Below are positions 13,013 to 30,371 of a DNA stretch of 32,000 nt, one piece after another (position 1 is the first letter of the stretch; each line of letters opens with the position of its first letter). The notes beneath the pieces are model-generated. The model ran no database searches and was not told the origin of the DNA. It worked only from the letters and a program-made list of their open reading frames with translations. The translations under genes were made by a program, and so were the position numbers. This DNA comes from an archaeon (lineage in GTDB: Archaea > Iainarchaeota > Iainarchaeia > Iainarchaeales > CSSED10-239): NCBI GenBank assembly GCA_041657425.1, contig JBBABY010000004.1, positions 60,001 through 92,000 of the forward strand, in the 5' to 3' direction.

Positions 13013-13077
13013 TTTTGAAAACCTTTGTTCATTTATTATTGAAATTAATATATTATATATATTATATCACTAACAAT

Positions 13078-13089
13078 TGTTTATAAATA
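13078..13089 (-). promoter_or_regulatory. TGTTTATAAATA box (TATA-like), candidate promoter of giant paralog B
   Basis: Exact 12-mer containing the palindromic TTTATAAA, 66-77 nt upstream of the ATG at 13012. A one-mismatch copy lies at 13125..13136. Confidence 0.35.
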
Positions 13090-13158
13090 TTGCTTTTTCT
13101 ATATAATATACTAATTGCTCAAAATGTTTATAAATTAATACTAATTAACTGGTAGAAG

Positions 13159-14886
13159 TTACTCGTTTGGGGGGGTGCAAGGCGAACCTCCACCTGGCGC
13201 AACATAATTTTGACATTTCCAAGCATTTCCTGTAAAATCGACATTCCCTAAACTTGTTGGCCCTAAATAATTATTACCAGTTACTGATAACTCGCTCCAA
13301 ACCCCATTTGGTGGGAAATAAAAAGGCGTATATCTGTCTTCTAAAACTACATTTATTGTTACAGGAAGATTTTGATATTGCTTTCTCACTCTGTATCTTG
13401 GGTCCGTCTCTATAAATTGTAAGATGATTTTCGCGAAATCCATTTCTGAACAACTGAGATCATAGGACGCGCCTGTTGCTTCACCAGTAGCTACAATTGG
13501 TGGAGATAGATTTGTATTTGCATTATACCAAGTAAATAATCCTGGCATTTCCCAAAGCATTTTAGATCTTTGGGTTTCTGAATTTAGAAATAAACCAAGA
13601 CCTCCTGAAACTCCTGACATATCTGATAACTCTGAAAATCTAGTTTGACTAAAACTTGCAGGTGCAGGTCCCGGAGCGTCCCCAAAAACGTCTTTGGTTC
13701 GTTTTTTATCCATAATTACTTCTACTCCAAAAATATTTAAATCGGAAACTGTGTCGCCTTGCATAACTAAACCGTTATTGTAAGTCATTGGGTCTATTCT
13801 TGAAGAAATGTTTTCATTTAAAACTGCAGTGTATAGTTTTTCAAATTGCGATTTTGGATCAGAAGTATCAAATAAATTATAGTTGCCAAAAGGTGGGAAA
13901 ACTACTCCGGAAAGTGCTGCAGGAGTTGGAGTTGCAATTGTTTGATCGGGAATGTTTTGGCATTGAGAAGCAATTCCTGTAGTTGCTGGGGTTGCAAAGA
14001 AATCTGTTCTTGGTGCACAAGTGCCTGGATCACAAAAACCAAGTCTTGCTTGTTCCAGAGTATTATGAATTTCTGGATTGAATAATCCTGTGTCGCTTTC
14101 TGCAACTGCCGGGTTATCTGATCTTTCTGCATCACGACTATGAGCAATATTTCTTGCAACTCTAAATGCTTGAAAACCACGCCATGGCATGTATATCTTG
14201 TATATCTGTCTGCTTAGAACTGGTCTTTGAATAACTTGATTACTTTTATATTTTAAAACTGTGACCACTGGTAAGATTTCATAATCTACATCAGAAAGCT
14301 GCGTAGTATCAAGTGTTAAATAAAATGAACCAACGCAATTATTATCATCAGTTTCACAATCAATAACATCAATTTTCTTTCCACCGTCTTCAAACATTTT
14401 CACAACAACATTTTCAAAAGTGTTTTCGTCATCTATGTCTGTTGGATCTCCATTTGAGCCAACCTCATACCCCGTGTGTTCTTCAATTGTAATATTATAC
14501 CCTGGAGGATTTTCTGAATATTGAAGATTAAATATTAATCCTTGAGCAAAGTAAGATGCAAAGTTTTGTTCAAAGAATGTGTCTTGAACAAAACTATCTA
14601 CAAAATAATTCCAATTTTGATCCATTTGTTTTCTAGTTAAATTAAACGAAGTTTTTGATTTACTTAATTCCCATTGCGATCTTAAGACAATTAAAAATGT
14701 ATTAAAAGCATCTGCTCTTGCAATATCTCCTACAGTCATCAAGTCGGACATTGATGATTGATCTTGAATAAGAGAGAGATATGTTTCTTCTGTATTTATC
14801 ATATTAAAAATAAGAGCTAGAGATATAGATACAAGTAGCAAAGAAATTAATGCAGTAAATAAGGTAAATCCTTTTTGTGATTTCAT
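13159..14886 (-). CDS. Large pilin-like or pseudopilin-like protein with a class III (prepilin-type) signal peptide (575 aa)
   Basis: N-terminus MKSQKG/FTLFTALISLLLVSISLALIF: short basic leader, Gly at -1, then an uninterrupted hydrophobic helix. This is the prepilin peptidase substrate pattern, here without Glu at +5. The rest is hydrophilic and has 10 Cys in apparent pairs (CETDDNNC, CDPGTC, ...KCQNYVAPGGGSPC), which fits an extracellular protein. Confidence 0.65.
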   Translation of the reverse strand: MKSQKGFTLFTALISLLLVSISLALIFNMINTEETYLSLIQDQSSMSDLMTVGDIARADAFNTFLIVLRSQWELSKSKTSFNLTRKQMDQNWNYFVDSFVQDTFFEQNFASYFAQGLIFNLQYSENPPGYNITIEEHTGYEVGSNGDPTDIDDENTFENVVVKMFEDGGKKIDVIDCETDDNNCVGSFYLTLDTTQLSDVDYEILPVVTVLKYKSNQVIQRPVLSRQIYKIYMPWRGFQAFRVARNIAHSRDAERSDNPAVAESDTGLFNPEIHNTLEQARLGFCDPGTCAPRTDFFATPATTGIASQCQNIPDQTIATPTPAALSGVVFPPFGNYNLFDTSDPKSQFEKLYTAVLNENISSRIDPMTYNNGLVMQGDTVSDLNIFGVEVIMDKKRTKDVFGDAPGPAPASFSQTRFSELSDMSGVSGGLGLFLNSETQRSKMLWEMPGLFTWYNANTNLSPPIVATGEATGASYDLSCSEMDFAKIILQFIETDPRYRVRKQYQNLPVTINVVLEDRYTPFYFPPNGVWSELSVTGNNYLGPTSLGNVDFTGNAWKCQNYVAPGGGSPCTPPNE

Positions 14887-14922
14887 AATATTTATTTCTT
14901 ATTTATTATATAATAGATAATA

Positions 14923-14952
14923 AGAATAAAAGAAAAAGGTTTAAAAAAGGGT
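14923..14952 (-). terminator. Oligo-T runs directly after the paralog A stop
   Basis: The minus strand reads ACCCTTTTTTAAACCTTTTTCTTTTATTC after the TAA. An A/T-rich TATA-like stretch (TTATATAATAAA) follows, ahead of the pilin-like gene. Confidence 0.3.
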
Positions 14953-15420
14953 TTATGCAACCTTTGGAATTGCATAATCATCATAAAGAGCATAACCACT
15001 TGATGGAATTACTACTTCACAAATTCTATTTATTTTTACGTCATGAGTAAATCTACTATTTAATGGTTCAAACTCAATATTTGGACCAAATTGATGAATT
15101 ACATAATCGATTCCATCTTTTTTCCCAACATATAATATTGCATGTGATGGTTTTACACAATCTATCCCTTTTGTTATTCCAATTGTTATAATTGCTCCAG
15201 GAACTAAATTTTTCTCGAAATCAACAATACTATCTGTTTTTGCGTCCCAAACTACTTTATTATTTTTTCCAAGTTCCCATGCATCTCCATTTACATATTG
15301 TCCAATTCCAGGATAATTTTTTTCTGCAACTTGCTGTGCAAATGTAGAACAATAATCTGCAGAAATTGCAGAAACATCTTCACATGCAGATTTTGCAGGA
15401 GCTTTTGGAAATTTACAAGA
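14953..15420 (-). other. NlpC/P60-CHAP-like papain-fold domain at the C-terminus of paralog A
   Basis: ...ADYCSTFAQQVAEKNYPGIGQYVNGDAWELGKNN...NLVPGAIITIGI...KPSHAILYVGKKDGIDYVIHQFG. A Cys at a helix start (codon 15349..15351) is followed by an aromatic residue. There is an xGDAWE motif and a PGAII strand. His lies 69 aa after the Cys (15142..15144) and a second His 16 aa further on (15094..15096). Order and spacing match the Cys-His-His/polar triad of NlpC/P60 and CHAP enzymes. Called by eye only. Confidence 0.5.
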
Positions 15421-18400
15421 TTCATAACTTTGTAATTTCGGTTCTTTCTCGTTATACATATTTACTTGTATTTGTAATAAATCTGCAGAGACTTCTACTG
15501 CTGAACCTGGAGTTTCTGGATCTGTTACTGTTGAACCAGGATTTTCTGAATCTGTTTTTTCAGTTGTGTCTTCTGGAGTTTTTTGTGGAGGAGTTCCTTG
15601 TAATAATTCTTCTCTATGTTCAGAAGTTAATATTTCTTTTATTTCTTTATTATTTTCATAAACTATTTTATTATCTTCTGCAATAGATGGAATTTCATTA
15701 ACTATTTTAAAGTTAAAATTATTAGTTTTTTTATCAATCTCAACTTTATACCATGTTCCGTTTCTAAATTCAGTAATTGGCATCGAACTATCTGCTCCAT
15801 ATGCTAAACCATTATACTGCCCAGTCTCTGCAGAATATTCTAGTAATCTATTTCCTAAATAATTAGATAACACAACAACTCCAATATCTAAACCAATTTT
15901 TCCTGTGGTTCTACCGAATTTAGTCCATTTAGTTACCCCGGCAGATGCTAACCCTTTTGCAGATAATTTAACTTCATCTATGTTTTTTACAAGATCATCA
16001 GTTACATCATATAATCCTGCGGTATTTTTTGGACCCGCTTTTATATTTTCTAAACTATTTATAGTATTTTCAGCACCTTCTTTTGATTTCGTAAATGCAT
16101 CTATTTCATTATCTAATATTTTTAGTTTCTTTGTTTTATTTATCTTTGAAGAACTCCATCCACTCTTTTCTAATTTTGCTTTTGCAGCAAGTGATTTTTC
16201 TAATTGGTCTTCAGCTAATTTCTGAGTACCTTTTGCTTCTCTTAAATAATCATCAACAGTTTCTGCAGATAAAGTTTTAGGAATTGTAGTTGTGATTGTT
16301 GATGGTGGTGCAAGATTAGTTCCTAACAATTTATCTACATCATCAATTGCAGAATTTATTTTTGGTGCATCAGTTGTTATTTGTTTAGTTAATACATCAT
16401 CTAATTGATATTCAGTTGGTGACTTTAGGGTTGCACCACTTTTCATATTTGTTTTAAGTGTATCTATGTCTGTAATTGCGCTTGTTGTTTTTGTTTGTGC
16501 TGTAATTAAATCATCATAAACTTGATCTGTTCCTGCTGCTGGTGGCGTTGGATAATCTGCTTTTATCTTTGCATCTATTGTTTTTAAATGAGTATCTAGT
16601 GCTGCTTTAGAATCATCTGTTGCTTTTACCAAATCATCAAAATTTCTTTTGGGCATTATGTTTGTTGTTGATGTTCCACCTGATTTTGTAAATTGATTTA
16701 ATCTATCAGTGAATAACTTTTTATCTGGCGTAATCCAATTCCCTGGGGTATCATAACTTCCAGTAGTAATTATTCTTTCAAATTCTGTTAATTCTGCATT
16801 AGATAATGCATTAAATTTAATCATATCTAATTTCCCAGAAGTTGTTATTTTACTAAATAGGCTTCTAACTGCAGCGTCATCTGACATTCCTGTGGCTACA
16901 TTAACTCCTGGAGCAAATCTAATATCTGTTGGTGCAACATATGGTGCGCCTGTAGGTTGACTCACATAATTTTGAAGATACCTGTATTGATTATTTAATT
17001 GTCCTTCAAATAATACTTGTGTAGATGGTGTAAGCCCTTTTGTTGTGGTTGTTGTTGTTGAACTTATTCCTGTTGCATTTATTTTTGTTGTTGTTGGATA
17101 TGTTGGATTTGGATTTGGGGTAGTTTGAGTAATCGGATCTAAATCTGCACCCATAATTTTATCTGAAATTGCTATTCTGTCTGCAGCGGGTTTATTTTCT
17201 ACTATACTTGCACCTACTGGCCCTGCAACCATTGCAACATTTTTTGGAGAAAATACTTTCCCAATTAATTCTCCAACATCGCCAGTGATTTCTTTTGTAA
17301 ATCCTTTAATTATTTCCCAAATTGGAATTTTTATTTCGGTCTCTTCTAGATACATTGCTCCTGCAGGAAGACCACAACCTGGTGCACAATTCCAAGCAAT
17401 GTCTGAAATAATTTTTGCTTGGCCTAAAATTGGTAATAAATTCCAAAGAGTATCTACTCCAGCAGTTGCTAATGCACAAGGAGTTAAACATCCTGCTAAA
17501 AATGTGCCAGCTCTTTTTGCGGCTCTATCATTATTTGCTTTTATTTCTGATTTAGTTTTTTCAAAGTCACATGCCTCTGGTTTCTTGAAAATGGTTAGTT
17601 TGTCTCCAACGTTTTTATTGTATTTTTCTAAAGTGCTACAATATGCTTCTTTGTCTTCTTTATTGTACGCTTTATCCCAATCTACATATGCATAGAAATT
17701 ACTTTCAGTTTTTGCTTTGTCTTTTCCTAATACTTCCATTTCCTTTTGAGTTTGTTTTAGAAGGTCTTGAGGGGTTATTCCATAGTTTAATAATGTAATA
17801 TTTGTGTCGCTTTTTCTTATTGAATTAATTTTACCAACTGTTGAATATTTGCTTTCTGCAGTTATTACTAATTGCTTATTACTCCAGTTTGCAATTTCTG
17901 AAATGTCTCCTTGTATACAAATATTAAAGTCTGTACCTTTGTCTTTTTCTAAAATCATTGAAAAAGTATTTTCTGATTCTTTTCCTTGGTAATTAAATTT
18001 AGTTTTTACTCCAGGTAATTCTTGAGTTTTAATTTCTATTTGCTCAGTAATTGCAGAAGTTGCGGTTACTACTGTACAGGTACTTGTTGGAAGTAACTGA
18101 AGCTTATCTGTTTTTGCTTTTAGACTTAATGCCCCAAAGTCTTTATCAAAAGATAAAATTAACATATAATTCCTATCTTTAGAAATACAAATGTCTGCGG
18201 GATTACCTTCGATTATGTTTTTAATATCCTTTGCTGTTTGATTAATAAATTCGCTTGGATAATTAACGTCTTCATTTTCTGTGGGTATTCCAAACTTATT
18301 ATTTATAATTACATTTATTGTTTCTGCTTGAGGATCTTTTGGTTCTCCAGGATTCTTAAAATAAAGTTTAGCAATTGCTGTTTTATCTTCAGCAATTTCT

Positions 18401-21400
18401 CCAACAGAAATATTTAATTGACTAAATTTCTTTTGTTCATTTGTCTTTAATTGGAATCTGTCTTCTGTATTAAATACGCCTTTTGAAACTGGAAGACCGA
18501 AATCTTTATCCCCACTAATTACTGTTAACCATGTGTCTCTTGTATTTGTTTTAGAAAGTGCATTATCTATATCTTTTGGCAAATACATCCTTATATTTTC
18601 TATACTCTTCTTACATTGTTCAGTTTTATTTGCATCAATTGTTACAAAGAAATATGCATTTTCTGCATCAAGTTTTGTTTGGCCTTTTGTTGCAACTGAC
18701 CCGTCAATTGTTATCTTATATCTTCCACAACCATTTATTTTATTATCAATATGTATTACCACTCCGCCAGCTATTGAAAGCCCGCCTGTTGTTGCCCCAA
18801 CATTTGGCCTTACCATAGCCCCTTTTATTGTTGGAAACTTTGTTGCTTCTTTATTGTTTTGAAGCACAGATAAAACTGTATTATCTGATAATGAATCATT
18901 CTGAACATATAATGGAATATTTCTAAACTTTGCTAATTGCTCAGAAGTTAATAACTCTGAAATTGGACAACTGCCATTTATTGCAGAAGTCATAGAACAA
19001 TTTGTTTGATCTACTTCGTCAGCAACTTGTCTTGATGCATTTATTACCATTGTATGCATTTCTTGTATTTTCTCAGCAATGAACTCTGCAGCATTAGAAC
19101 TATCACAATATCCTTCTTGTTTACAATCTGTAACAATTATTGGGAATGTAAAATTTGCAGTTTCGCTATCACTATCTGCTGCTTCTCCACAAATTTTTAC
19201 ACTTACATCTTCTTCTACTCTTTTAAAATCTGCTGTAATATCTGGATTTATTTCTTCAACTTCTAGTGAAAACGAAAGTCTATCAGAAGTTACAACACTT
19301 CCAGGAGTATTGTTTAATGGCGCGCCAATTAATCTTAATGATTGATCTATTTTTGCAGGGAAATATTCCAGAGGTTTTACTTTTAGAATATATGGAACCG
19401 TTTGACCTGAAGCAATAAACCCTGTAGGACTCTGAGGAATCAACCATAATTGAGTATTTTTTCCAAATGCTTGATCATAAAGATTAGGAGAAATATTTGC
19501 ACTAGGGTCAAATGTAATATAACCAACTGGATCAGCACATTGATTTGTAACATTGATTAACTTAGATTTTTCTTCTCCAACTTTTGCATAGATGTATATT
19601 TTCTTTTGATCAACTTTTAAACACCCAGCTGATGAAAATCTAAAGTCTACAGTGAATCTTGCTTCTATTGGTTCCTTAACCCCTTTTGCATCTGCTGTAA
19701 CTTTATAGTAGAGTGTTGCATAAGTTGCTTTATCTACTTTTCCTTCATATCTTATAATTATTTTTTTTGATTGACCAGGTTTTATTTCTTCAAAACTTAT
19801 AGGTTCAATTTTGTCTTGGATATTTGAAGGTAGTTTTTCTTCAAATCTTGAAATCTGTATATTTTTTACTGGATATTTACCATTATTCTTTAATAAAAAC
19901 ATTGTTTGATTTGCAGCAGGCGTTACATCCATTTCTTGAGTTAATGAAACTAAAGATAGTGGAGGAGACACACTAATAGTTTTTGAGAAATCAACTAAAT
20001 CTAAATTAAGTTTTGTGTTCTCTAAAGCATAATATGAGTTTCTCCAGGCAATTTCAAATGCGTAACTCTTTGTTGATTTTCTTTCTTTATTATTTCTTAT
20101 TGTTATTGTATAATCTGTTATTTCTTCATTAGGTTCAATTGTTATTGTTGGAAGATCAATTTCTATATTTTCGTCTTTCTTAATTGTTGTGCCTTTTGCT
20201 TTTAATAATTCTGGAGTGATTATTAATGACTTTGAACAATTATTTACGATTGTCGCAGTTATTTCATTTTCTGAACCTTCACTTATTCCAACATAAGCAT
20301 AGATTGCTAATGGTTTGATTTCTAGACAATCGTTCTTTACTATTCCTCTATAATAATTAATAGTTATCTCTTTAGCTACTTGCTTGTTTCCTACAAAACC
20401 ATAAATGGTTAAAATTGATTTCCCTGTTTTGAAATTTATCTTTGGATCCACTGTTGAAAAGATTTCTATAACTTCTGGAGCGCCAGGATTTAATGCAATT
20501 GGTAATTGTGTTTCTGTTGTTAGTCCAATTACTTTATCTATCTCTGTTATCGTGTATGTTAAATCTTTAACTTGTATGCTTCCTTTGTTAACAAGAGTTA
20601 TCTTCTCTGACTCTTGACTAATGCTTTCTCCAAAACTTATATCTATACTATCTGGTGCGTAGATTAAACCGGTGTCTGCAATTGTTAATTGTTTTGTAAA
20701 TGAAATATAACCTGGAGCACTAACTTCCATATTTGGTTTTGCACTTGAGAAGTTTTGATTAATAATATATTTTCCGTTCTTTCCTGTTTTTGTACTGGAA
20801 ATCGTATCTCCGAACTCGTCTGTTAATTTTACTAATGCATTATTAATTGCAGTTTTGTTATCTGCATCTTGTACATCTATAATTATTGGAGAATTATATG
20901 CAATGATTTCTGGAACTGTAATTATTAGATTTCTCTTTTGTTTTATTTCAAAACTTAATCTTTTTTCTATAACTTTACTATTAAATGTACTTTTTATATC
21001 TAAGTAAGTTATTCCTGTATCTTTTGCTTTAAATAATATATATTGTTTTCTGTTCACGCCTGATTGTATTACAAATACTGAAGAACTTAATTTTGTATCT
21101 TGTGAATCAAGACTAGAGGTTGGAAACAATTCTGTTTCTTGATAACTTATTAAACCAACTATTGGCTTACTATTGTCAGTTTGTGCTTCTATTGTTAGTT
21201 CTCCATTTAACACACTGTAATAACTCAATTCAAGAAGATATAAGTCATCTTTTACTGCAAAGAAACTTTCTTTTGAATAATCAAAATTATCTTTATCTAA
21301 AAATTTGTAATCAACACAAAGATTATTAGAGCACTCTGCTGGACTCTCTAAAATGTTTAAGGATAAATCTTTTGTTTCTGCATATAAGCTTTGTCGTGAA

Positions 21401-23814
21401 GAATTATTTTTTGAAGTTCCAAGTATCGTGTCTTCAGGATCTCTGTATGTTGAACCAGTAACATCACACCATGCTCTATACTTGATTGGCATTGTGCCGA
21501 TTTCACTTGCTTTAACTTTTAACATTACTTGCTTGTTTGTTAATGTACTACTTGGCCAATATAATTCTAACCATTTATTTAATTGATTTGGTTGTCCAAC
21601 ATTATCTGTATCAATTGATTGTTCTCCAGAATTATAAGTTGTAGAATATTTGTAGGTTATTGTGTCTGCTTTAAATCCGGTTATTCCATAAGTCATGTTT
21701 TCAGAATCAGACTCGAAATATTCTCCTGCTCTGAAATGCACTCCGCAACTTTTTGCATCAATTGGGAGTTGTAAATCAAAGACAAGATAGTAATCTGCAT
21801 CTTTACTTAGAACACTTGTTGGATTATTATATATATCTCTTAATTCTATAAATGTAATTACTGGATTATAATCTATAACTGATGGTTTAAGAGCTACTGA
21901 TAATTTTTCGCTATCTCCAACAACTGCAGAAACAATTGTTGTCGCGCCATTTTCATCTGTATATTCTATTAATAAATCCCTATAGCCTTGAGTATTGAAT
22001 GACAATGGAGTTTCATCAAGACAGGTGTCTGAAAGAATCTCTCCAAGTTTTGATTTTACAACAACACATCCGTTGGTTACACCATTTCCATGTAAGTCTT
22101 TTAATTCTAAAGTAACTATCTTTGATGCATCGTTAATTGTTAAAATTACTTTATTGTCCTTAAATGGATCAATAGTTATTTCCTTAGAAGCATTAGCATC
22201 TCCAACAACCCCTACAACATTATATTTTTCTCCTGATTTGGTATAGACTGAAGTAAATCCTGTAAGATCAACTTGAAGTGGGCCTAAGCCTATTGGAACA
22301 AACTTTCCTCCTAATTCTTTGTATACTAAAACATTCGCTTTCGAGATTGGATTATTTACTCCATCATAAACATAAATTGAAAGCTTGTAACTATTATCTG
22401 TAGTAATTTTTTCTAAACTAATTTCTAAATCATTTGATAAAGAAATATTCACATATTGTTGTAAACAAAGATATCCATCTTTACAAGCAGTAACTACATA
22501 TTCTTGATTTTGATCAAGACCATTAAATATTACTTGCCCATCCATTTCTGTGGTTTTAGAAGATAAAAGATTTCCAGTTAAACTGTATAATGAAATGCCT
22601 ACTTGATCTAATGGGCCAACTAAGTTTTCTGTAACTTTAACTTTTAAATCAGAACTTCCTGCAATCATCTTTATAGTAATTGTTTCTTCGCTTTTTAATA
22701 ATCTATATGTTACATTGTACGTATCACTGTCATAAATTCTATAGCCTTCTTTAGTTACTACAAAACGAATTGCTTGCCCAGCATTTAATGTAAATGTAGT
22801 TTTACCTAATTTTGTAATCTCGCTACCAATTATTTCTCCAACAGCATTATAAATGATAACATTACAATCATCAAGTAAATCCCCGTTTTGTGTTGTTGTT
22901 ATTAATATTAATCTTGATTGCGTGCCTGCTAATTGAGCAGTGTTGTCGTATTCTAAATTTATAGTTCTAGTTTCATTAGAACTTGTTAATTTTATTGTTT
23001 GAGTTAATGTTTCATAACCGTCGCTAACAATTGTTAAAGTTATATCTTTTCCTATAGGAACCCCTGTAAAATCAATCTCTCCCAATGTATTTGGTTCTCC
23101 AATCTTTTCTTGAGCTTGACCATTGATTTTATAATCTAATGTTGCTGAGTATTTACTTACAGATTTATTAGTTTGGCTATCTGTAACTATTAATTTTAAA
23201 TTGCCAGTCTCTATTAATTCATTAAATTGTATAACTAATGGACCATCTCCGGAATACATAAATGGTTTCTCATAAACTTGAAATCCTTCTTTTGTTGCTG
23301 TGACTGTATAATCTTTTCCCGGACTTATTGCAATTCTTCTCTTTTCTCCATTACTTATTATTTCATTAAATTTAGCTTTATCATTTAAATCTCTTATTGA
23401 AACTTGCACATAATTTAATTTATTTCCTGAATAATCCATTATGCTAAACTCAACTGTTGTCTTTGTTGCAAAGTTGATTACTAAAAAAATGATTATTGCT
23501 AAAATAATTATTGAAAGACTTGTAACGAAAGCAAAAGAAGGAATTCCTTTATCTTCAAGAAAATCATTTAGTTTGTTTAAGCCTATTCCTTTCTTACCTA
23601 ACCAATCAGAAAATGCAAAATACCTATCTTCCAAACCTCTATAGATTTTGCCAAAAATATTTCCCTCTTGCTGTTTATCCATTTCATTATCTGAAAAATC
23701 ATTATTAACTTCAGAATAATCTTCAATTTCTTGATTATCAGAAATCTCTTGATCTTCTAAATCAGAAAAATCCTCTTTTTTTGTTTTCTTTGGTTTTGCT
23801 TTTTCTTTTGCCAT
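14953..23814 (-). CDS. Giant N-terminally anchored surface protein, paralog A (2953 aa), with a C-terminal papain-fold (NlpC/P60-CHAP-like) domain
   Basis: Uninterrupted 8862-nt ORF, ATG start. A charged/acidic leader of about 54 aa, then IFGKIYRGLEDRYF...DKGIPSF plus a hydrophobic helix (about aa 94-114). Six CarboxypepD_reg/PEGA-like repeats, e.g. LKVKVTENLVGPLDQVGISLYSLTGNLL...DGQVIF...EYVVTACKDGY. Shared central module, two-Cys Ig-like repeats, hydrophobic Gly/Ala/Cys segment, Thr-run linker, helical region, P/T/E linker, and a Cys/His domain. Confidence 0.9.
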   Translation of the reverse strand: MAKEKAKPKKTKKEDFSDLEDQEISDNQEIEDYSEVNNDFSDNEMDKQQEGNIFGKIYRGLEDRYFAFSDWLGKKGIGLNKLNDFLEDKGIPSFAFVTSLSIIILAIIIFLVINFATKTTVEFSIMDYSGNKLNYVQVSIRDLNDKAKFNEIISNGEKRRIAISPGKDYTVTATKEGFQVYEKPFMYSGDGPLVIQFNELIETGNLKLIVTDSQTNKSVSKYSATLDYKINGQAQEKIGEPNTLGEIDFTGVPIGKDITLTIVSDGYETLTQTIKLTSSNETRTINLEYDNTAQLAGTQSRLILITTTQNGDLLDDCNVIIYNAVGEIIGSEITKLGKTTFTLNAGQAIRFVVTKEGYRIYDSDTYNVTYRLLKSEETITIKMIAGSSDLKVKVTENLVGPLDQVGISLYSLTGNLLSSKTTEMDGQVIFNGLDQNQEYVVTACKDGYLCLQQYVNISLSNDLEISLEKITTDNSYKLSIYVYDGVNNPISKANVLVYKELGGKFVPIGLGPLQVDLTGFTSVYTKSGEKYNVVGVVGDANASKEITIDPFKDNKVILTINDASKIVTLELKDLHGNGVTNGCVVVKSKLGEILSDTCLDETPLSFNTQGYRDLLIEYTDENGATTIVSAVVGDSEKLSVALKPSVIDYNPVITFIELRDIYNNPTSVLSKDADYYLVFDLQLPIDAKSCGVHFRAGEYFESDSENMTYGITGFKADTITYKYSTTYNSGEQSIDTDNVGQPNQLNKWLELYWPSSTLTNKQVMLKVKASEIGTMPIKYRAWCDVTGSTYRDPEDTILGTSKNNSSRQSLYAETKDLSLNILESPAECSNNLCVDYKFLDKDNFDYSKESFFAVKDDLYLLELSYYSVLNGELTIEAQTDNSKPIVGLISYQETELFPTSSLDSQDTKLSSSVFVIQSGVNRKQYILFKAKDTGITYLDIKSTFNSKVIEKRLSFEIKQKRNLIITVPEIIAYNSPIIIDVQDADNKTAINNALVKLTDEFGDTISSTKTGKNGKYIINQNFSSAKPNMEVSAPGYISFTKQLTIADTGLIYAPDSIDISFGESISQESEKITLVNKGSIQVKDLTYTITEIDKVIGLTTETQLPIALNPGAPEVIEIFSTVDPKINFKTGKSILTIYGFVGNKQVAKEITINYYRGIVKNDCLEIKPLAIYAYVGISEGSENEITATIVNNCSKSLIITPELLKAKGTTIKKDENIEIDLPTITIEPNEEITDYTITIRNNKERKSTKSYAFEIAWRNSYYALENTKLNLDLVDFSKTISVSPPLSLVSLTQEMDVTPAANQTMFLLKNNGKYPVKNIQISRFEEKLPSNIQDKIEPISFEEIKPGQSKKIIIRYEGKVDKATYATLYYKVTADAKGVKEPIEARFTVDFRFSSAGCLKVDQKKIYIYAKVGEEKSKLINVTNQCADPVGYITFDPSANISPNLYDQAFGKNTQLWLIPQSPTGFIASGQTVPYILKVKPLEYFPAKIDQSLRLIGAPLNNTPGSVVTSDRLSFSLEVEEINPDITADFKRVEEDVSVKICGEAADSDSETANFTFPIIVTDCKQEGYCDSSNAAEFIAEKIQEMHTMVINASRQVADEVDQTNCSMTSAINGSCPISELLTSEQLAKFRNIPLYVQNDSLSDNTVLSVLQNNKEATKFPTIKGAMVRPNVGATTGGLSIAGGVVIHIDNKINGCGRYKITIDGSVATKGQTKLDAENAYFFVTIDANKTEQCKKSIENIRMYLPKDIDNALSKTNTRDTWLTVISGDKDFGLPVSKGVFNTEDRFQLKTNEQKKFSQLNISVGEIAEDKTAIAKLYFKNPGEPKDPQAETINVIINNKFGIPTENEDVNYPSEFINQTAKDIKNIIEGNPADICISKDRNYMLILSFDKDFGALSLKAKTDKLQLLPTSTCTVVTATSAITEQIEIKTQELPGVKTKFNYQGKESENTFSMILEKDKGTDFNICIQGDISEIANWSNKQLVITAESKYSTVGKINSIRKSDTNITLLNYGITPQDLLKQTQKEMEVLGKDKAKTESNFYAYVDWDKAYNKEDKEAYCSTLEKYNKNVGDKLTIFKKPEACDFEKTKSEIKANNDRAAKRAGTFLAGCLTPCALATAGVDTLWNLLPILGQAKIISDIAWNCAPGCGLPAGAMYLEETEIKIPIWEIIKGFTKEITGDVGELIGKVFSPKNVAMVAGPVGASIVENKPAADRIAISDKIMGADLDPITQTTPNPNPTYPTTTKINATGISSTTTTTTKGLTPSTQVLFEGQLNNQYRYLQNYVSQPTGAPYVAPTDIRFAPGVNVATGMSDDAAVRSLFSKITTSGKLDMIKFNALSNAELTEFERIITTGSYDTPGNWITPDKKLFTDRLNQFTKSGGTSTTNIMPKRNFDDLVKATDDSKAALDTHLKTIDAKIKADYPTPPAAGTDQVYDDLITAQTKTTSAITDIDTLKTNMKSGATLKSPTEYQLDDVLTKQITTDAPKINSAIDDVDKLLGTNLAPPSTITTTIPKTLSAETVDDYLREAKGTQKLAEDQLEKSLAAKAKLEKSGWSSSKINKTKKLKILDNEIDAFTKSKEGAENTINSLENIKAGPKNTAGLYDVTDDLVKNIDEVKLSAKGLASAGVTKWTKFGRTTGKIGLDIGVVVLSNYLGNRLLEYSAETGQYNGLAYGADSSMPITEFRNGTWYKVEIDKKTNNFNFKIVNEIPSIAEDNKIVYENNKEIKEILTSEHREELLQGTPPQKTPEDTTEKTDSENPGSTVTDPETPGSAVEVSADLLQIQVNMYNEKEPKLQSYESCKFPKAPAKSACEDVSAISADYCSTFAQQVAEKNYPGIGQYVNGDAWELGKNNKVVWDAKTDSIVDFEKNLVPGAIITIGITKGIDCVKPSHAILYVGKKDGIDYVIHQFGPNIEFEPLNSRFTHDVKINRICEVVIPSSGYALYDDYAIPKVA

Positions 23815-23973: not shown

Positions 23974-24531
23974 TTAGAAAGAAACTTTAACATTCTTCTT
24001 TTCTTCTTGACTTGCTTCTAAGAATGTTTCTTCTTTGAAATTAAATGCGTTAGCAAACATATTGTTTGGTACTGTTTGGATCTTGTTATTATAATCCATA
24101 ACTATATCGTTATAATATTGTCTTGCATAAGCGATTTTGTTTTCAATACCTGAAAGTTCTTCTTGAAGCATTAAGAAATTTTGACTTGCTTTTAAGTCAG
24201 GATAGTTTTCAACAACTACACTTAACAAACCACCAATTGCTTTAGACATTTGATCATTTGTTTTCATTGTTGCTTTTATGTCCTTACTTTGCATTGCTTG
24301 ATTTCTTAATTCTGTAATCTTTGATAAAGTTCCAGCTTCGTGCTTTGCATAGCCTTTAACTGTTTCAACTAAGTTTGGTACTAAATCGTATCTTTTTTTT
24401 AATTGAACATCTATTTGGCTCCAGCCGTTTTTAACTTTATTTCTTGCGATAATTAGAGAATTAAAAATAGTCAATGCGATTATAACAAGTACTGCAATAA
24501 TTCCTAAAATTACCCAAATTGCTATATTCAT
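23974..24531 (-). CDS. lemA: LemA family membrane protein (185 aa)
   Basis: N-terminal TM helix followed by NKVKNGWSQIDVQLKKRYDLVPNLVETVKGYAKHEAGTL, the hallmark LemA core. Strong SD AAAGGTGAT 5-13 nt upstream of the ATG. Confidence 0.85.
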   Translation of the reverse strand: MNIAIWVILGIIAVLVIIALTIFNSLIIARNKVKNGWSQIDVQLKKRYDLVPNLVETVKGYAKHEAGTLSKITELRNQAMQSKDIKATMKTNDQMSKAIGGLLSVVVENYPDLKASQNFLMLQEELSGIENKIAYARQYYNDIVMDYNNKIQTVPNNMFANAFNFKEETFLEASQEEKKNVKVSF

Positions 24532-25098: not shown

Positions 25099-25476
25099 CT
25101 ACTTATAATATGTATCTAATGATTTTTTAATTAATTCAATATCATGATTTTCTTGATGATTCTTTAGATAAATATCTATAAAAAGAATTTCTTTTCTTTC
25201 TTTTGATAAATGCCAAATTACTCTCGCGCTATAATCTTTATCATCAGATATTCTCATTCGTGATTTGATTGCAATAAATTTAGAATACTTCTCTCCAAGT
25301 TGTACCCTCTCGTTTCTTTTTGGAGACTCTTTTAATAGTTCTTCTTTTCTTGTTAAAATCGTTTGCTTAATTATTTCAAAATCTTTCACTAAACATCTAG
25401 AATGTTTCTTTAAAACCTTATCAAACTTATGTTCAAAATTAGAAGCATTTTTAGCAACACAATCAATTGATTCCAT
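25099..25476 (-). CDS. Putative toxin partner of the Panacea-domain protein, possibly RelE/ParE-like (125 aa)
   Basis: ATG lies 10 nt after the stop of the upstream DUF4065 gene. The C-terminal half, FIAIKSRMRISDDKDYSARVIWHLSKERKEILFIDIYLKNHQEN, resembles the RelE/ParE beta-sheet core pattern (xRxR...YRvIY...v.ll.I..K). The family assignment is weak. Confidence 0.4.
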   Translation of the reverse strand: MESIDCVAKNASNFEHKFDKVLKKHSRCLVKDFEIIKQTILTRKEELLKESPKRNERVQLGEKYSKFIAIKSRMRISDDKDYSARVIWHLSKERKEILFIDIYLKNHQENHDIELIKKSLDTYYK

Positions 25477-25486
25477 TGCTAATAAC

Positions 25487-25975
25487 CTACTCTACTAGTT
25501 TTTCTAAGGACTCTGCTCTGTAAAATACTAAGTCATAATCTATTATTTCCTTATCTTTAGAAACAATATAAGGATTATCTTTGTGAGATAAATTTGATAT
25601 TTGAGTCGCAGAAAGATTTCCTAATTTTTTTATAACTTTATCAATAGTAGAGATTTCTTCTTTTGATAATTTACTTAATTTGGGAATATCTAAAATCTTA
25701 TACTTTGTGTTTTGTGATAACTGTTTAGTTTCTATTTTATTTTCCTTTTCTAGTTTATTAATTATTATTGCGATATGTACTGGGGCAGGACCAAACTCAA
25801 TCTTTCTATAATCTTCATTTGTAATTGATTTATTGTTTTTTTTATAGTGATTAAAATCAGAAAAATATAATAATTTATATAATACGGTTTTTCCAAAATT
25901 TGGATTAGAACTACAATTAAAAATAATATAATGAACCATTTCACTTAATTTCTCAGAATTATAATTTATAGTCAT
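25487..25975 (-). CDS. Panacea / DUF4065 (SocA-like) domain protein, putative antitoxin (162 aa)
   Basis: KTVLYKLLYFSDFNHYKKNNKSITNEDYRKIEFGPAPVHI matches the DUF4065 signature (hKLLYf.D......g.pit...y.....GPv). It is followed by a short C-terminal region and a tightly coupled small downstream ORF. Confidence 0.65.
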   Translation of the reverse strand: MTINYNSEKLSEMVHYIIFNCSSNPNFGKTVLYKLLYFSDFNHYKKNNKSITNEDYRKIEFGPAPVHIAIIINKLEKENKIETKQLSQNTKYKILDIPKLSKLSKEEISTIDKVIKKLGNLSATQISNLSHKDNPYIVSKDKEIIDYDLVFYRAESLEKLVE

Positions 25976-28559: not shown

Positions 28560-30371
28560 TTAACGGGCACCGGCACCACCGCCGCCTCCACCACCGCCAC
28601 CAAAGCCTCCGCCTCCGTGACCTCCAAATCCACCAGAAGATGAATTTCCCATTGTTGTAGAAAAACTACTCATTGCAAATGCAGAATATACAACAAATTG
28701 TTCATTTTTGGAAACCTCTTCTGGCATAGCTGTCTTCAGTGCTTTTGATGCTTCTTTTGCAACTCCAAATGCTGTTGCATAAACCATATATTCTTCCCAA
28801 AGAATTACATGTTGTGGTGGATATTGTTTGATTAAAGAAAAATCAGTAATATATTTTTTAAAATTAGTCCATTGTAAATTTTTTACTCTTCCTTCTTTAG
28901 AAAATCTTCCAAAGATTACTGAAAAACTAATTTTTGATCTAGTAGCTATATTTGCAATAATTATTACAATTGCTGAAATCCAAAAAACAAATGTCACCCA
29001 TGTTGGAAAAATATATCCAAAAAATATAAAATTTATTATTCTTGAAAAAATAAAAGCATATAGAATAATTGCAATATTTGCAACTATCATTCCTGTTTTA
29101 TCAAAATATTTATTTTTATTTGCCCATCTATTAGTTTCTTTCTGAACCTTTATTTGCAGTGCTCTAAAATCATTAATAAAATTTGATTTCTCTTCTAATT
29201 TTGAGAAGAAATCTGTAGCGTCTTTTGATTTATATTGCCCACTTCTTAAATCATCTAAATTAATTGTTCCATCCGGATAATATTCTTTAAAGAACTTATC
29301 AACTTCAGAAACATAATTTGGAAGCGTTACTTCTTTTGCATCTTTTATTCTTACTAAACTATATTTTTCTGAACTAAATAATGTTTTATCTTTTTCTTTT
29401 ACTAATTCATATTGTTTTTTCCAAACTAAATACATAATTGCAGAAGAAAACCAATTTTTTGATAATTCTCCAGTTATTAAATAATGCGCTTGAACTGGGT
29501 CTTCTTCTCCAGGCAAATCTCTTTCATAAATTCCTAGATAACCAGTTTTACTTTCTGGAATTTCTTTTCCAAAGATTAACCAAATTATAAATAATAATAA
29601 AATTGGAAAACCAATCATTAGGAAAAGATATAATAAAATAATACCTAGTGGGGCTTCATTCTTTACATTTGCTTTTGTGTATTGATTATAACCCTCTTTC
29701 CAATTTTTCTCTTCTTCTATTATTTGAGCTTGTGTATAGTTTCTGTCTGGATAATGATAAAGATTGTTTTCTGAAAACCACTCTTTTGGCATCAATAAAT
29801 TTACTTCAATTATTTCATAAGCACCAACGTGTTTTGAAATTCTAAGTTCTCCATATATTATTTGAGAAAAATAATCCTTTGAATGTATAAACTGAGTTAT
29901 TTTATTCACAGCCCCTGGAAAACTAATATTAATATTTACATCTGTTGAAACTGACGTTTTACCAGGATACACTTGATAGTAAAATTGTACGCCATCTTCT
30001 AATTCTCTTATCTGTTGAGCAAGTTCATAATTAAAATAAGCAACTACATTTGTATCACAGAAATTGCCTTTTAATATTAATTCAGGATCTCCAGAAACTG
30101 TTCCATATTGTTTATACTCAAATGTACAAGTTGCTCCTGAACATGCACCATTTGGTTCAGAAATTATTAAATTTGGCCTTTGAAGATAAAGTTCTGTAAA
30201 ACATCCAGACAATTGATAATTTAGTGCTTCTGTAACACTTACATTTCCGGACTGCTGTATTCTGTAATTGATAGTATAATCTGTAATTTTAAGTTCTTTT
30301 GCAGAAACTATTGGAAAGATAAATAATATTAAAACTAAAACTAAAATCCATTTAGTATTTTTAGTTAACAT
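28560..30371 (-). CDS. DUF2207 domain membrane protein with a Gly-rich C-terminal tail (603 aa)
   Basis: Signal/TM helix, then a beta-rich ectodomain of about 230 aa, a TM helix, a cytoplasmic domain, a cluster of TM helices, and the tail SSSGGFGGHGGGGFGGGGGGGGGAGAR. This layout is typical of DUF2207 proteins. SD GGTGA 7-11 nt upstream. Confidence 0.75.
   Translation of the reverse strand: MLTKNTKWILVLVLILFIFPIVSAKELKITDYTINYRIQQSGNVSVTEALNYQLSGCFTELYLQRPNLIISEPNGACSGATCTFEYKQYGTVSGDPELILKGNFCDTNVVAYFNYELAQQIRELEDGVQFYYQVYPGKTSVSTDVNINISFPGAVNKITQFIHSKDYFSQIIYGELRISKHVGAYEIIEVNLLMPKEWFSENNLYHYPDRNYTQAQIIEEEKNWKEGYNQYTKANVKNEAPLGIILLYLFLMIGFPILLLFIIWLIFGKEIPESKTGYLGIYERDLPGEEDPVQAHYLITGELSKNWFSSAIMYLVWKKQYELVKEKDKTLFSSEKYSLVRIKDAKEVTLPNYVSEVDKFFKEYYPDGTINLDDLRSGQYKSKDATDFFSKLEEKSNFINDFRALQIKVQKETNRWANKNKYFDKTGMIVANIAIILYAFIFSRIINFIFFGYIFPTWVTFVFWISAIVIIIANIATRSKISFSVIFGRFSKEGRVKNLQWTNFKKYITDFSLIKQYPPQHVILWEEYMVYATAFGVAKEASKALKTAMPEEVSKNEQFVVYSAFAMSSFSTTMGNSSSGGFGGHGGGGFGGGGGGGGGAGAR

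Follow-up and report, generated by a model that had tools for sequence, protein, structure and literature searches.

Three giant proteins (A, B and C) are encoded on the minus strand of the 32-kb stretch of archaeal DNA analyzed here (the window), and each carries a similar segment immediately ahead of a predicted N-terminal transmembrane helix. What is this segment for? The initial annotation argued that an ordinary signal anchor has no need of such a motif and suggested either a recognition tag read by a dedicated insertion, sorting or clustering factor, or a docking site in the cytoplasm. We aimed to determine whether the motif is a genuine conserved unit, how widely it occurs and which of these roles it could serve.

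The quoted N-terminal peptides proved to be exact translations of three long minus-strand open reading frames, and when all six frames of the window were scanned with an HMM, one copy of the motif came up per giant and no others, with E-values that make chance matches untenable (Table 1). The coordinates first assigned to the three copies were essentially right: 23473..23652 corresponds to residues 55-114 of A (motif and transmembrane helix), beginning one codon past the quoted F54, whereas 12815..13012 and 5757..5930 correspond to residues 1-66 of B and 1-58 of C. Residues Y11, L14, E15, Y18, L32, K34, D37, P45 and F47, numbered along the segment of A as originally delimited, are invariant in the alignment of A, B and C. 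The C-type motif is shorter, lacking profile columns 21-25 and 39. N-terminal extensions like the one in A were also found in P0015, P0052 and P0125.

Table 1. Features of the giant operon in the window (all positions are those of the 32-kb stretch)
Feature	Position	Strand	Description
Giant A	14953..23814	minus	2953 aa; first gene of operon
A-type N-terminal extension	23662..23814	minus	A residues 1-51; basic stretch, then acidic low-complexity stretch, then motif
Motif copy in A	23530..23661	minus	Residues 52-95: NIFGKIYRGLEDRYFAFSDWLGKKGIGLNKLNDFLEDKGIPSFA; E 1.4e-19
Transmembrane helix of A	23464..23529	minus	Residues 96-117
Prepilin-like protein	13159..14886	minus	575 aa; class III N-terminus MKSQKG/FTLFTALISLLLV; weak N_methyl match
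Giant B	6059..13012	minus	2317 aa
Motif copy in B	12881..13012	minus	Residues 1-44: MGLKEFYYNLEDKYFEMLDNLEEKGINLYKLVDPLEKNGIPTFP; E 1.1e-27
Transmembrane helix of B	12815..12880	minus	Residues 45-66; predicted helix 42-65
Giant C	339..5930	minus	1863 aa
Motif copy in C	5817..5930	minus	Residues 1-38: MGLSKIYYYLENKYYDFVEKTGLYKITDKIDKFMPSFL; E 7.9e-16
Transmembrane helix of C	5757..5816	minus	Residues 39-58

Together the giants occupy ~21 kb of the window. Public annotation goes no further than 'hypothetical' or 'carboxypeptidase regulatory-like domain' protein; in NCBI, A is labelled Pacearchaeota, WCX82_01050 (labelled 'archaeon') is identical to B, and an exact look-up of C gave no matching record. 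PF13620 scored above its gathering cut-off in A, B and C (44.7, 44.2 and 46.7 bits) and in the ectodomain homologues, which identifies them as CarboxypepD_reg/prealbumin-like repeat surface proteins with PF13620-type beta-sandwich ectodomains; such sandwiches make up the ectodomain of A. Pfam returned beta-sandwich repeat families only, and no autotransporter or two-partner-secretion family. Each giant has a single strong transmembrane helix, near its N-terminus, and no C-terminal transmembrane helix was predicted in A, B or C, so the N-terminal helix is the only predicted transmembrane anchor. The C-terminal domain of A had been guessed to be an NlpC/P60-like peptidase, but Pfam gave chance-level matches only (E ≥ 0.009), PDB sequences gave none, and its AlphaFold2 model (pLDDT 48.6) was without a Foldseek match at E ≤ 0.001.

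As initially suggested, conservation is higher in the motif than in the ectodomains, both in the window and beyond it. A and B share 54% identity over the 39-residue motif, while their ectodomains align only in three short patches (65-136 residues) at 30-35%; B and C are 24% identical across 935 ectodomain residues, and BLASTP found no significant match between A and C. Across 470 pairs, identity was 0.55 in the motif and 0.24 in the ectodomain, and the motif scored higher than its flanks in 470/470. Among the columns of the motif alignment, E11 is invariant, Y7 is 98% and P41 97% conserved, and the invariant or near-invariant charged residues are E11, D12, K13, D19, D33 and E36.

Structure prediction suggests a small helical unit. 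The AlphaFold2 model of the B-type motif and anchor (mean pLDDT 88.5) places helices at 3-23, 29-37 and 42-65. The first element of the motif is predicted to be an aromatic-rich amphipathic helix of ~21 residues. A K-G-[IV]-P turn leads from it to another amphipathic helix, 9 residues long, and the second turn, G-I-P-S-F-P, would run directly into the single transmembrane helix. Helix 2, the second turn and the transmembrane helix keep a rigid, gap-free spacing. In helix 1, hydropathy and conservation both peak at a periodicity of 100 degrees; the hydrophobic moment is 1.5 (0.63 ± 0.32 in shuffles), and 17% of motif residues are aromatic. Among 117 giants, K+R amounts to 1.74 in the 15 residues before the transmembrane helix and 0.65 after it. 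These flanking charges favor a cytoplasmic N-terminus, which agrees with the side assigned to the motif by the initial annotation, although the positive-inside signal is modest, given that acidic residues outnumber basic ones ahead of the helix (5.8 K+R versus 7.9 D+E). With a median of 28 uncharged residues, the hydrophobic stretch appears anchor-like in length. Small residues follow it in some orthologs (e.g., ..PVFG/ITGG), so signal-peptidase cleavage is possible. No conserved signal-peptidase site was seen.

To establish the distribution of the motif, its profile was run exhaustively on 1.84 billion proteins and, separately, on genomes; both scans were needed, as motif profiles brought back no more than 3 and 12 short fragments in a word-indexed homology search. 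We found 921 representative protein clusters at E ≤ 1e-3, 216 of them at E ≤ 1e-10. In all of the best 150 of the 921 clusters the motif is N-terminal and single-copy, and in nearly all exactly one strong transmembrane helix lies right after it; most begin the motif within 15 residues of the N-terminus, and about 6 have longer extensions, of up to 120 residues. The genome scan yielded 66 motif loci, labelled Iainarchaeota/Diapherotrites (n = 21), Micrarchaeota (n = 13) and unnamed archaea (n = 29); the named groups among the carriers belong to the kingdom Nanobdellati, i.e. DPANN. In 64/66 of these loci no more than 20 residues separate the start codon from the motif, and the transmembrane helix follows directly; complete open reading frames at the loci have a median length of 2249 aa (33/37 of at least 1000 aa). 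No relatives were found in a motif scan of viral contigs. All 13 homologues retrieved by ectodomain alone carried the motif. Neither of the outcomes that the initial annotation had named as refuting its proposal was therefore observed: the motif is not absent from homologous giants, and its conservation is above that of its flanks. There are also smaller homologues with ordinary Sec signal peptides that lack the motif, consistent with the view that a plain anchor would not need one. On the other hand, ectodomain-only similarity joined 115 of 117 giants: the motif travels with one ectodomain family and is therefore not a portable tag, contrary to what a recognition signal for a dedicated sorting factor would imply. 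On these comparisons, hundreds of giant DPANN proteins share a previously undescribed N-terminal domain of ~44 residues that defines their family.

Searches for known relatives gave little. Pfam, NCBIfam and PHROGs scans of the three N-termini produced nothing meaningful beyond chance-level transmembrane matches and a weak match to PHROG 14014 (function unknown, E 3e-4). A profile search of PDB sequences with the motif gave chance matches only (E ≥ 0.03), and Foldseek found 0 matches in the PDB for the AlphaFold2 motif model. The strings LEDKYY, GIPSFP, IEDKWY and LEDKYF occurred in none of 8 million papers, and literature searches on DPANN giants and adhesins turned up nothing on the family. 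Two candidate relatives were rejected: the Micrarchaeum S-layer protein belongs to another family (PF05123, with a predicted signal-peptidase site), and helix 1 lacks the R and K positions that define an ESCRT MIM1-like motif.

The genomic context of the motif is simple. In the window, a prepilin-like protein is encoded between A and B as their operon partner, and the order A, prepilin-like protein, B, C recurs in at least 11 further loci. Homologues of this partner were present in 18/66 loci, each time beside the giants; the partner has a clear class III N-terminus (KG/F[TN]LFTAL). This extracytoplasmic protein is the only conserved companion in the 66 loci; no cytoplasmic or translocon-related gene co-occurs, which weakens the proposal of a dedicated factor, and no linked translocon, chaperone, pilus ATPase or platform gene was found. 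Motif copies from the same operon position in different genomes share 0.59-0.66 identity, as against 0.28-0.43 for copies from different positions, which indicates that the three versions are old and not interchangeable. Some loci have only one motif-bearing giant within 20 kb, so docking among paralogs cannot be the sole role of the motif.

We tentatively favor a reading, to which we assign a probability of roughly 45%, in which the motif stays on the protein as a cytoplasmic foot, fixing the topology and anchoring of the giant and probably docking co-encoded paralogs. Kept on the mature protein, it would form a small folded unit lying against the membrane. By folding as it leaves the ribosome, it would force N-in insertion and export of the 2000-3000-residue C-terminal part, and it would hold the single helix in the membrane against pulling. 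Through a broad conserved hydrophobic face and the invariant acidic residues of the motif, two or three co-encoded paralogs may dock to each other or to a cytoplasmic partner and so assemble into one surface structure. The clustering or docking option of the initial annotation is plausible and is the one we prefer. In an extended version, which we consider unlikely, the motif would be the module by which a surface apparatus specific to DPANN archaea docks on the cytoplasmic side: two or three co-encoded giants, each with its own conserved motif version, and the prepilin-like partner would be gathered at the inner face of the membrane and positioned by a cytoplasmic factor, for example at a site of host contact. 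If true, this would be the first archaeal counterpart of motif-directed sorting of surface proteins.

Other explanations have to be weighed against the retained foot. In each of three genes arrayed in tandem on one strand, the motif copy is found at the 5' end, as might be expected if the peptide had no function and the conservation reflected a nucleotide-level signal (a leader or regulatory RNA) or gene conversion among paralogs. However, the A and B motifs are only 0.61 identical in nucleotides; the second codon position is best conserved (0.74 versus 0.54 and 0.54 elsewhere) and 9 of 21 identical residues are encoded by different codons, which points to selection on the peptide. The same peptide moreover recurs across phyla in the 921 clusters, and each paralog has its own old version. 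This explanation is effectively refuted, and the motif stands as a real and strongly conserved unit selected at the peptide level. Very improbable, too, is an unusually long class III prepilin leader cut at K-G/I-P-S-F, with the giants as pilin-like proteins co-assembling with their prepilin-like neighbor. The commonest motif variant does resemble a class III signal in being a charged segment that ends in [KR]-G before a hydrophobic helix, and the operon contains a true example. Nevertheless, the giants lack a conserved [KR]-[GA] site behind a short leader: column 39, where residue -1 would fall, is filled in 79% of sequences (G in 76% and N in 22% of these), V, F or I takes this place in C-type copies, and P at +2 is 97% conserved. 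At 38-90 residues the leader would be far longer than those known from prepilins and far better conserved, surpassing every other part of the protein in conservation, and the loci lack a pilus ATPase or platform gene.

It is also possible, if unlikely, that the motif is a passive interfacial anchor and topology determinant, its aromatic-rich amphipathic helices lying in the interface of the inner leaflet with no partner or role in assembly. The aromatic content, the strong amphipathic periodicity, the fixed spacing up to the transmembrane helix and the loci with a single giant would all fit, and Denzer, Wahlberg and Spiess reportedly found in 1995 that a folded N-terminal domain favors N-in insertion of signal anchors. 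Yet the conserved charged residues and net negative charge suit anionic archaeal lipids poorly, and position-specific versions conserved across phyla imply more specificity than a generic membrane-binding helix needs. Like type II (N-in) signal-anchor proteins that have a small folded tail in the cytoplasm, the giants show a single N-terminal helix, an N-terminal excess of K+R and a very large exported C-terminal part, but generic anchors have no conserved sequence before the helix, whereas here it is the best-conserved part of the protein.

The main rival to the retained foot, somewhat doubtful in our judgement, is a targeting extension that paces export by analogy with ESPR or YSIRK. On this view the motif would open a very long signal or anchor sequence and would be read by SRP/FtsY, SecYEG, a YidC/Oxa1-like insertase or another factor, so that insertion of very long secretory chains is slowed, timed or localized; it might afterwards be cut off with the helix. 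The motif emerges first from the ribosome and abuts the hydrophobic segment, nearly all carriers exceed 1000 aa, and the motif-free smaller homologues would fit a size-dependent need. ESPR (PF13018) is likewise a conserved extreme N-terminal extension of tens of residues, abutting the hydrophobic export segment in a subset of very large surface adhesins; dispensable for targeting as such, it delays passage across the inner membrane and can influence assembly (PMC8151025). YSIRK signal peptides direct localized secretion, the motif setting the secretion site of its protein (PMC5962339). Similarly, YSIRK/GXXS (PF04650, TIGR01168) and KxYKxGKxW (TIGR03715) are conserved motifs in the N-terminal export signals of large Gram-positive surface proteins. 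The differences are considerable, however. PF13018 was unmatched in a Pfam-A hmmscan of the three N-termini at E ≤ 10, as were PF04650 and the NCBIfam signal-peptide models, and no sequence relationship to ESPR was found. ESPR lies in the cleaved signal peptide of diderm-bacterial type V secretion proteins from several T5SS subfamilies, whereas the giants are archaeal beta-sandwich repeat proteins of one family, with a motif predicted as two helices and a transmembrane helix that looks like a permanent anchor. The Gram-positive motifs are short parts of a cleavable signal peptide, and their proteins also bear a C-terminal wall-sorting signal; here the motif is a 44-residue predicted helical domain, and the window giants show no C-terminal transmembrane anchor. 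Cleavage of the helix would leave the window giants without a predicted transmembrane anchor, and its anchor-like length and the want of a conserved signal-peptidase site argue in the same direction. Finally, the link to one ectodomain family rather than several substrates, the versions specific to operon position, which would not be expected if one shared machinery read the signal, and the lack of a linked translocon or chaperone gene weigh against export pacing.

DPANN archaea are tiny, mostly uncultured symbionts, assumed to attach to their hosts via cell-surface structures that are almost wholly uncharacterized. For these organisms the motif provides a cheap and specific metagenome marker of the giant family and its operon, and a defined 44-residue target for asking how archaea insert, orient and organize single-helix proteins of 2000-3000 residues. 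It also adds an archaeal case beside bacterial ESPR and YSIRK, whose mechanisms remain debated. Given the architecture of a conserved base and a variable tip, contact with the host is likely to be made by the distal portions of the giants.

Translating the three giants A, B and C, very long ORFs putatively encoding N-terminally anchored surface proteins, reproduced the peptides quoted in the initial annotation for the conserved segment of ~44 residues directly preceding the single transmembrane helix (the motif). A six-frame HMM scan recovered exactly three copies in the window, one per giant as had been observed, with E-values of 1e-27 (B), 1e-19 (A) and 8e-16 (C). The intervals first assigned to it cover the motif plus the transmembrane helix, starting in A one codon past the quoted F54, and the observation itself is confirmed. 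Residues Y, L, E, Y, L, K, D, P and F of the pre-helix segment are invariant in a three-way alignment. The window has a G+C content of ~30% and contains no tRNA genes. The N-terminus of giant A has an identical match in NCBI, a fragment labelled Candidatus Pacearchaeota archaeon, and giant B is identical to NCBI WCX82_01050; Pacearchaeota and Iainarchaeota both fall within the kingdom Nanobdellati (DPANN). Genes around the giants (LemA, low-molecular-weight phosphatase, SocA/Panacea antitoxin-like, PEP synthase, DUF2207, GDSL lipase and a flavodoxin/ferredoxin protein) are housekeeping or membrane genes with no relation to them. A DUF2207 homologue also lies near the giants of locus L063, and the SocA/Panacea-like gene just upstream of the giant operon may form a toxin-antitoxin pair with the ORF that follows it.

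Features of the giant operon and its surroundings in the window
Feature	Coordinates	Strand	Description
Giant C	339..5930	-	1863 aa; very long ORF
Giant B	6059..13012	-	2317 aa; very long ORF
Operon partner between A and B	13159..14886	-	575-aa ORF; prepilin-like (class III) N-terminus MKSQKG/FTLFTALISLLLV
Giant A	14953..23814	-	2953 aa; very long ORF
Giant A, C-terminal region	14953..15750	-	~175-265 residues; 32-53% identity among A-type orthologs
Giant A, A-type N-terminal extension	23662..23814	-	51 residues ahead of motif; basic stretch (MAKEKAKPKKTKK), then acidic low-complexity stretch
LemA gene	23974..24531	-	near giants
SocA/Panacea antitoxin-like gene, then ORF	25099..25975	-	162 aa, then 125 aa without Pfam match
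DUF2207 membrane protein	28560..30371	-	near giants; glycine-only C-terminal tail (GGFGGHGGGGFGGGGGGGGGAGAR)

Between A and B, the motif is 54% identical over 39 residues, versus 30-35% in three short ectodomain patches (65-136 residues). The B and C ectodomains share 24% identity over 935 residues, and BLASTP gave no significant match between A and C. Among 117 full-length giants, 470 pairs had at least 500 aligned ectodomain residues; identity was 55% in the motif versus 24% in the ectodomain, and the motif was ahead in 470/470 pairs. The claim that it is conserved above the ectodomains and its flanks thus held for A and B and for every pair compared. The most conserved profile columns were Y7 (98%), E11 (100%), D12, K13, [YW]14, [YF]15, D19, L21, G25, Y29, D33, E36, P41 (97%), [ST]42 and [FL]43. 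Because these giants had been picked via the motif, a separate search was run with the B ectodomain alone: all 13 matches, fairly close orthologs of B (ectodomain identity 42-100%), start with the motif, and by eye their N-termini are nearly identical to that of B. Nucleotide identity between the A and B motifs was 0.54, 0.74 and 0.54 at the three codon positions, and of the 21 residues that the two share, 9 are encoded by different codons. Selection therefore acts on the peptide, not the DNA.

An exhaustive HMMER search of 1.84 billion representative proteins (profile of 62 positions) returned 921 clusters at E<=1e-3, 216 of them at E<=1e-10. In the best 150 of the 921 clusters the motif is single-copy and mostly starts within 15 residues of the N-terminus, with longer extensions, up to 120 residues, in about six. 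Of 148 sequences analysed from the same best 150, 95 reach 1000 aa or more (longest 3182 aa), and the short ones look like contig-end fragments. Nearly all contain a single strong hydrophobic helix, placed immediately after the motif. In P0093 (1290 aa), alone among the listed relatives, three additional hydrophobic segments precede the motif, which occupies residues 120-177; this reflects either a mis-called start codon or fusion to an upstream membrane protein. Scanning one genome per species yielded 66 loci, which by the labels on the sequence records comprise Iainarchaeota/Diapherotrites (21), Micrarchaeota (13), archaea of no stated group (29, including the closed genome AR10) and 3 non-matching labels. 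The latter, deposited as Chloroflexota, Thaumarchaeota and Candidatus Falkowbacteria (L033, L036 and L038), are contigs holding little besides the giant operon, and their labels are therefore probably binning errors. The first ATG lies at most 20 residues from the motif start in 64/66 loci, and complete motif-bearing ORFs have a median length of 2249 aa (at least 1000 aa in 33/37). Giant fragments downstream of the shortest of these ORFs suggest frameshifted giants. No motif was found in a scan of viral contigs. Locus L055 (2589..9908 and 18487..20100) carries degenerate motifs missed by the HMM, e.g. MPFTEALKEKWENFKFWLEEHNIPIPLFF, which keep one amphipathic helix and the I-P turn before the transmembrane helix and have no second helix.

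The motif differs consistently with operon position. Across genomes, identity within a position was 0.66 for A, 0.59 for B and 0.59 for C, versus 0.42 (A-B), 0.28 (A-C) and 0.43 (B-C) between positions. A-type motifs have N in place of Y29 and end in P-A-F (P-S-F in the window's A), while C-type motifs are without residues at profile columns 21-25 and without the column-39 glycine. All three versions are old and maintained, which argues for non-redundant roles. In A-type copies an extension of ~35-50 residues, basic and then acidic, precedes the motif, as in relatives P0015, P0052 and P0125; in the window it probably forms a disordered cytoplasmic tail peculiar to the operon's first giant. At the other end of A, the C-terminal region has invariant Cys and His residues (..DYCSTFA.. 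and ..PSHAILYVGK..) that recall papain-like or NlpC-P60 hydrolases, as a candidate only; it had no significant match in Pfam or among PDB sequences, and its AlphaFold2 model (pLDDT 48.6) had no significant match by Foldseek. A nucleotide-level signal or gene conversion as the origin of the motif was excluded by the peptide conservation across 921 clusters, the codon pattern and the old position-specific versions.

Clustering of every ORF from the window and the 66 loci placed 96 of 98 motif-bearing genes in one homology cluster, and by ectodomain-only similarity 115/117 full-length giants form one connected family. As judged from these comparisons, the motif is not a portable tag but belongs as an integral domain to a single, very divergent family. 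Two or three motif-bearing giants frequently stand in tandem on the same strand. The order A (~2600-2950 aa), ~570-aa protein, B (~2300-2600 aa), C is found in the window and in L005, L006, L010-L013, L021, L022, L034, L036 and L038, with the locus start cutting A or the locus end cutting C in several. Homologues of the ~570-aa partner (450-674 aa) occupy the same position in 18/66 loci and share a prepilin-like N-terminus, M..[KR]G/F[TN]LFTAL; Pfam returned no family for the window's copy except a weak N_methyl match. A second operon type, found in other DPANN genomes (L023, L059, L060 and L063; e.g. L060 442..9882 and 9962..19235), consists of a Hel308-like helicase, a motif-bearing giant (1300-1900 aa), a ~560-aa secreted protein without a Pfam match and a ~850-900-aa giant homologue. 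The motif is missing from the last, which has an ordinary Sec signal peptide; related ectodomains can therefore be exported without the motif. One genome (contig JANQMZ010000007.1) combines an operon of the A-partner-B-C type (L034) with a giant locus linked to a helicase (L062). No cytoplasmic or translocon gene was consistently linked to the giants among the 66 loci.

AlphaFold2 (B residues 1-66, alignment of 108 sequences, mean pLDDT 88.5) predicted helix 3-23, a K-G-I-N-L turn, helix 29-37, an N-G-I-P turn and transmembrane helix 42-65. Mean hydropathy in the first helix peaks at a periodicity of 100 degrees, as does its column conservation, and the hydrophobic moment is 1.5 versus 0.63 +/- 0.32 in shuffles. 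The motif is 17% aromatic. As read from the sequences it repeats internally, L-[DE]-x-K-G-[IV]-P-x-Y being followed by [IL]-E-x-x-G-I-P-S-[FL], so that a G-I-P turn and an aromatic residue come after each helix. Neither Foldseek against PDB nor a profile search of PDB sequences found relatives. Mean K+R is 1.74 in the 15 residues before the transmembrane helix versus 0.65 in the 15 after, a bias that would favour an N-in orientation, although the whole pre-helix segment is net acidic. The uncharged stretch at the helix (median 28 residues) is anchor-like in length, and the window giants have no C-terminal hydrophobic segment.

The most economical reading of function, topology and retention, which we infer with a probability of roughly 45%, is that the motif is a retained cytoplasmic foot that sets orientation, holds the helix and docks the paralogs or a partner. 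A small, fast-folding helix pair apposed to the membrane would fix the N-in orientation while the remaining 2000-3000 residues are exported, would keep the single transmembrane helix in the membrane, and its conserved face would dock co-encoded paralogs or a further partner. The main rival, that the motif paces export like ESPR (PMC8151025) or localises it like YSIRK (PMC5962339), would suit its N-terminal position and large carriers; we consider it somewhat unlikely, since it agrees less well with a helix of anchor length, with giants that have no other anchor, with a motif confined to one family and with versions specific to operon position. An interfacial anchor that is purely passive is an unlikely account, as it leaves the invariant acidic residues unexplained, and a long prepilin-type leader is highly improbable, failing on a variable glycine and an invariant proline at +2.

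Giant surface proteins whose export or anchor segment bears a conserved extension at the N-terminus are a kind already known. In its manner of working the motif would be closest to ESPR of type V secretion proteins and to the YSIRK and KxYKxGKxW motifs, but by Pfam/NCBIfam profiles it belongs to none of them. Its core peptide strings were not found in the papers searched, its carriers are publicly named 'hypothetical protein' or 'carboxypeptidase regulatory-like domain-containing protein', and it is new as a sequence family; neither the libraries nor the literature searched gave an archaeal counterpart. Position-specific versions would be expected if the paralogs hold distinct places in an assembly. 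Beyond the motif, ectodomain similarity among the 117 full-length relatives decays steadily from membrane-proximal to distal: 58% of pairs give a BLASTP match over the first 200 residues past the helix, and <10% do so beyond residue 1600. The giant family thus combines a conserved base with variable tips, a pattern typical of host-binding fibres.
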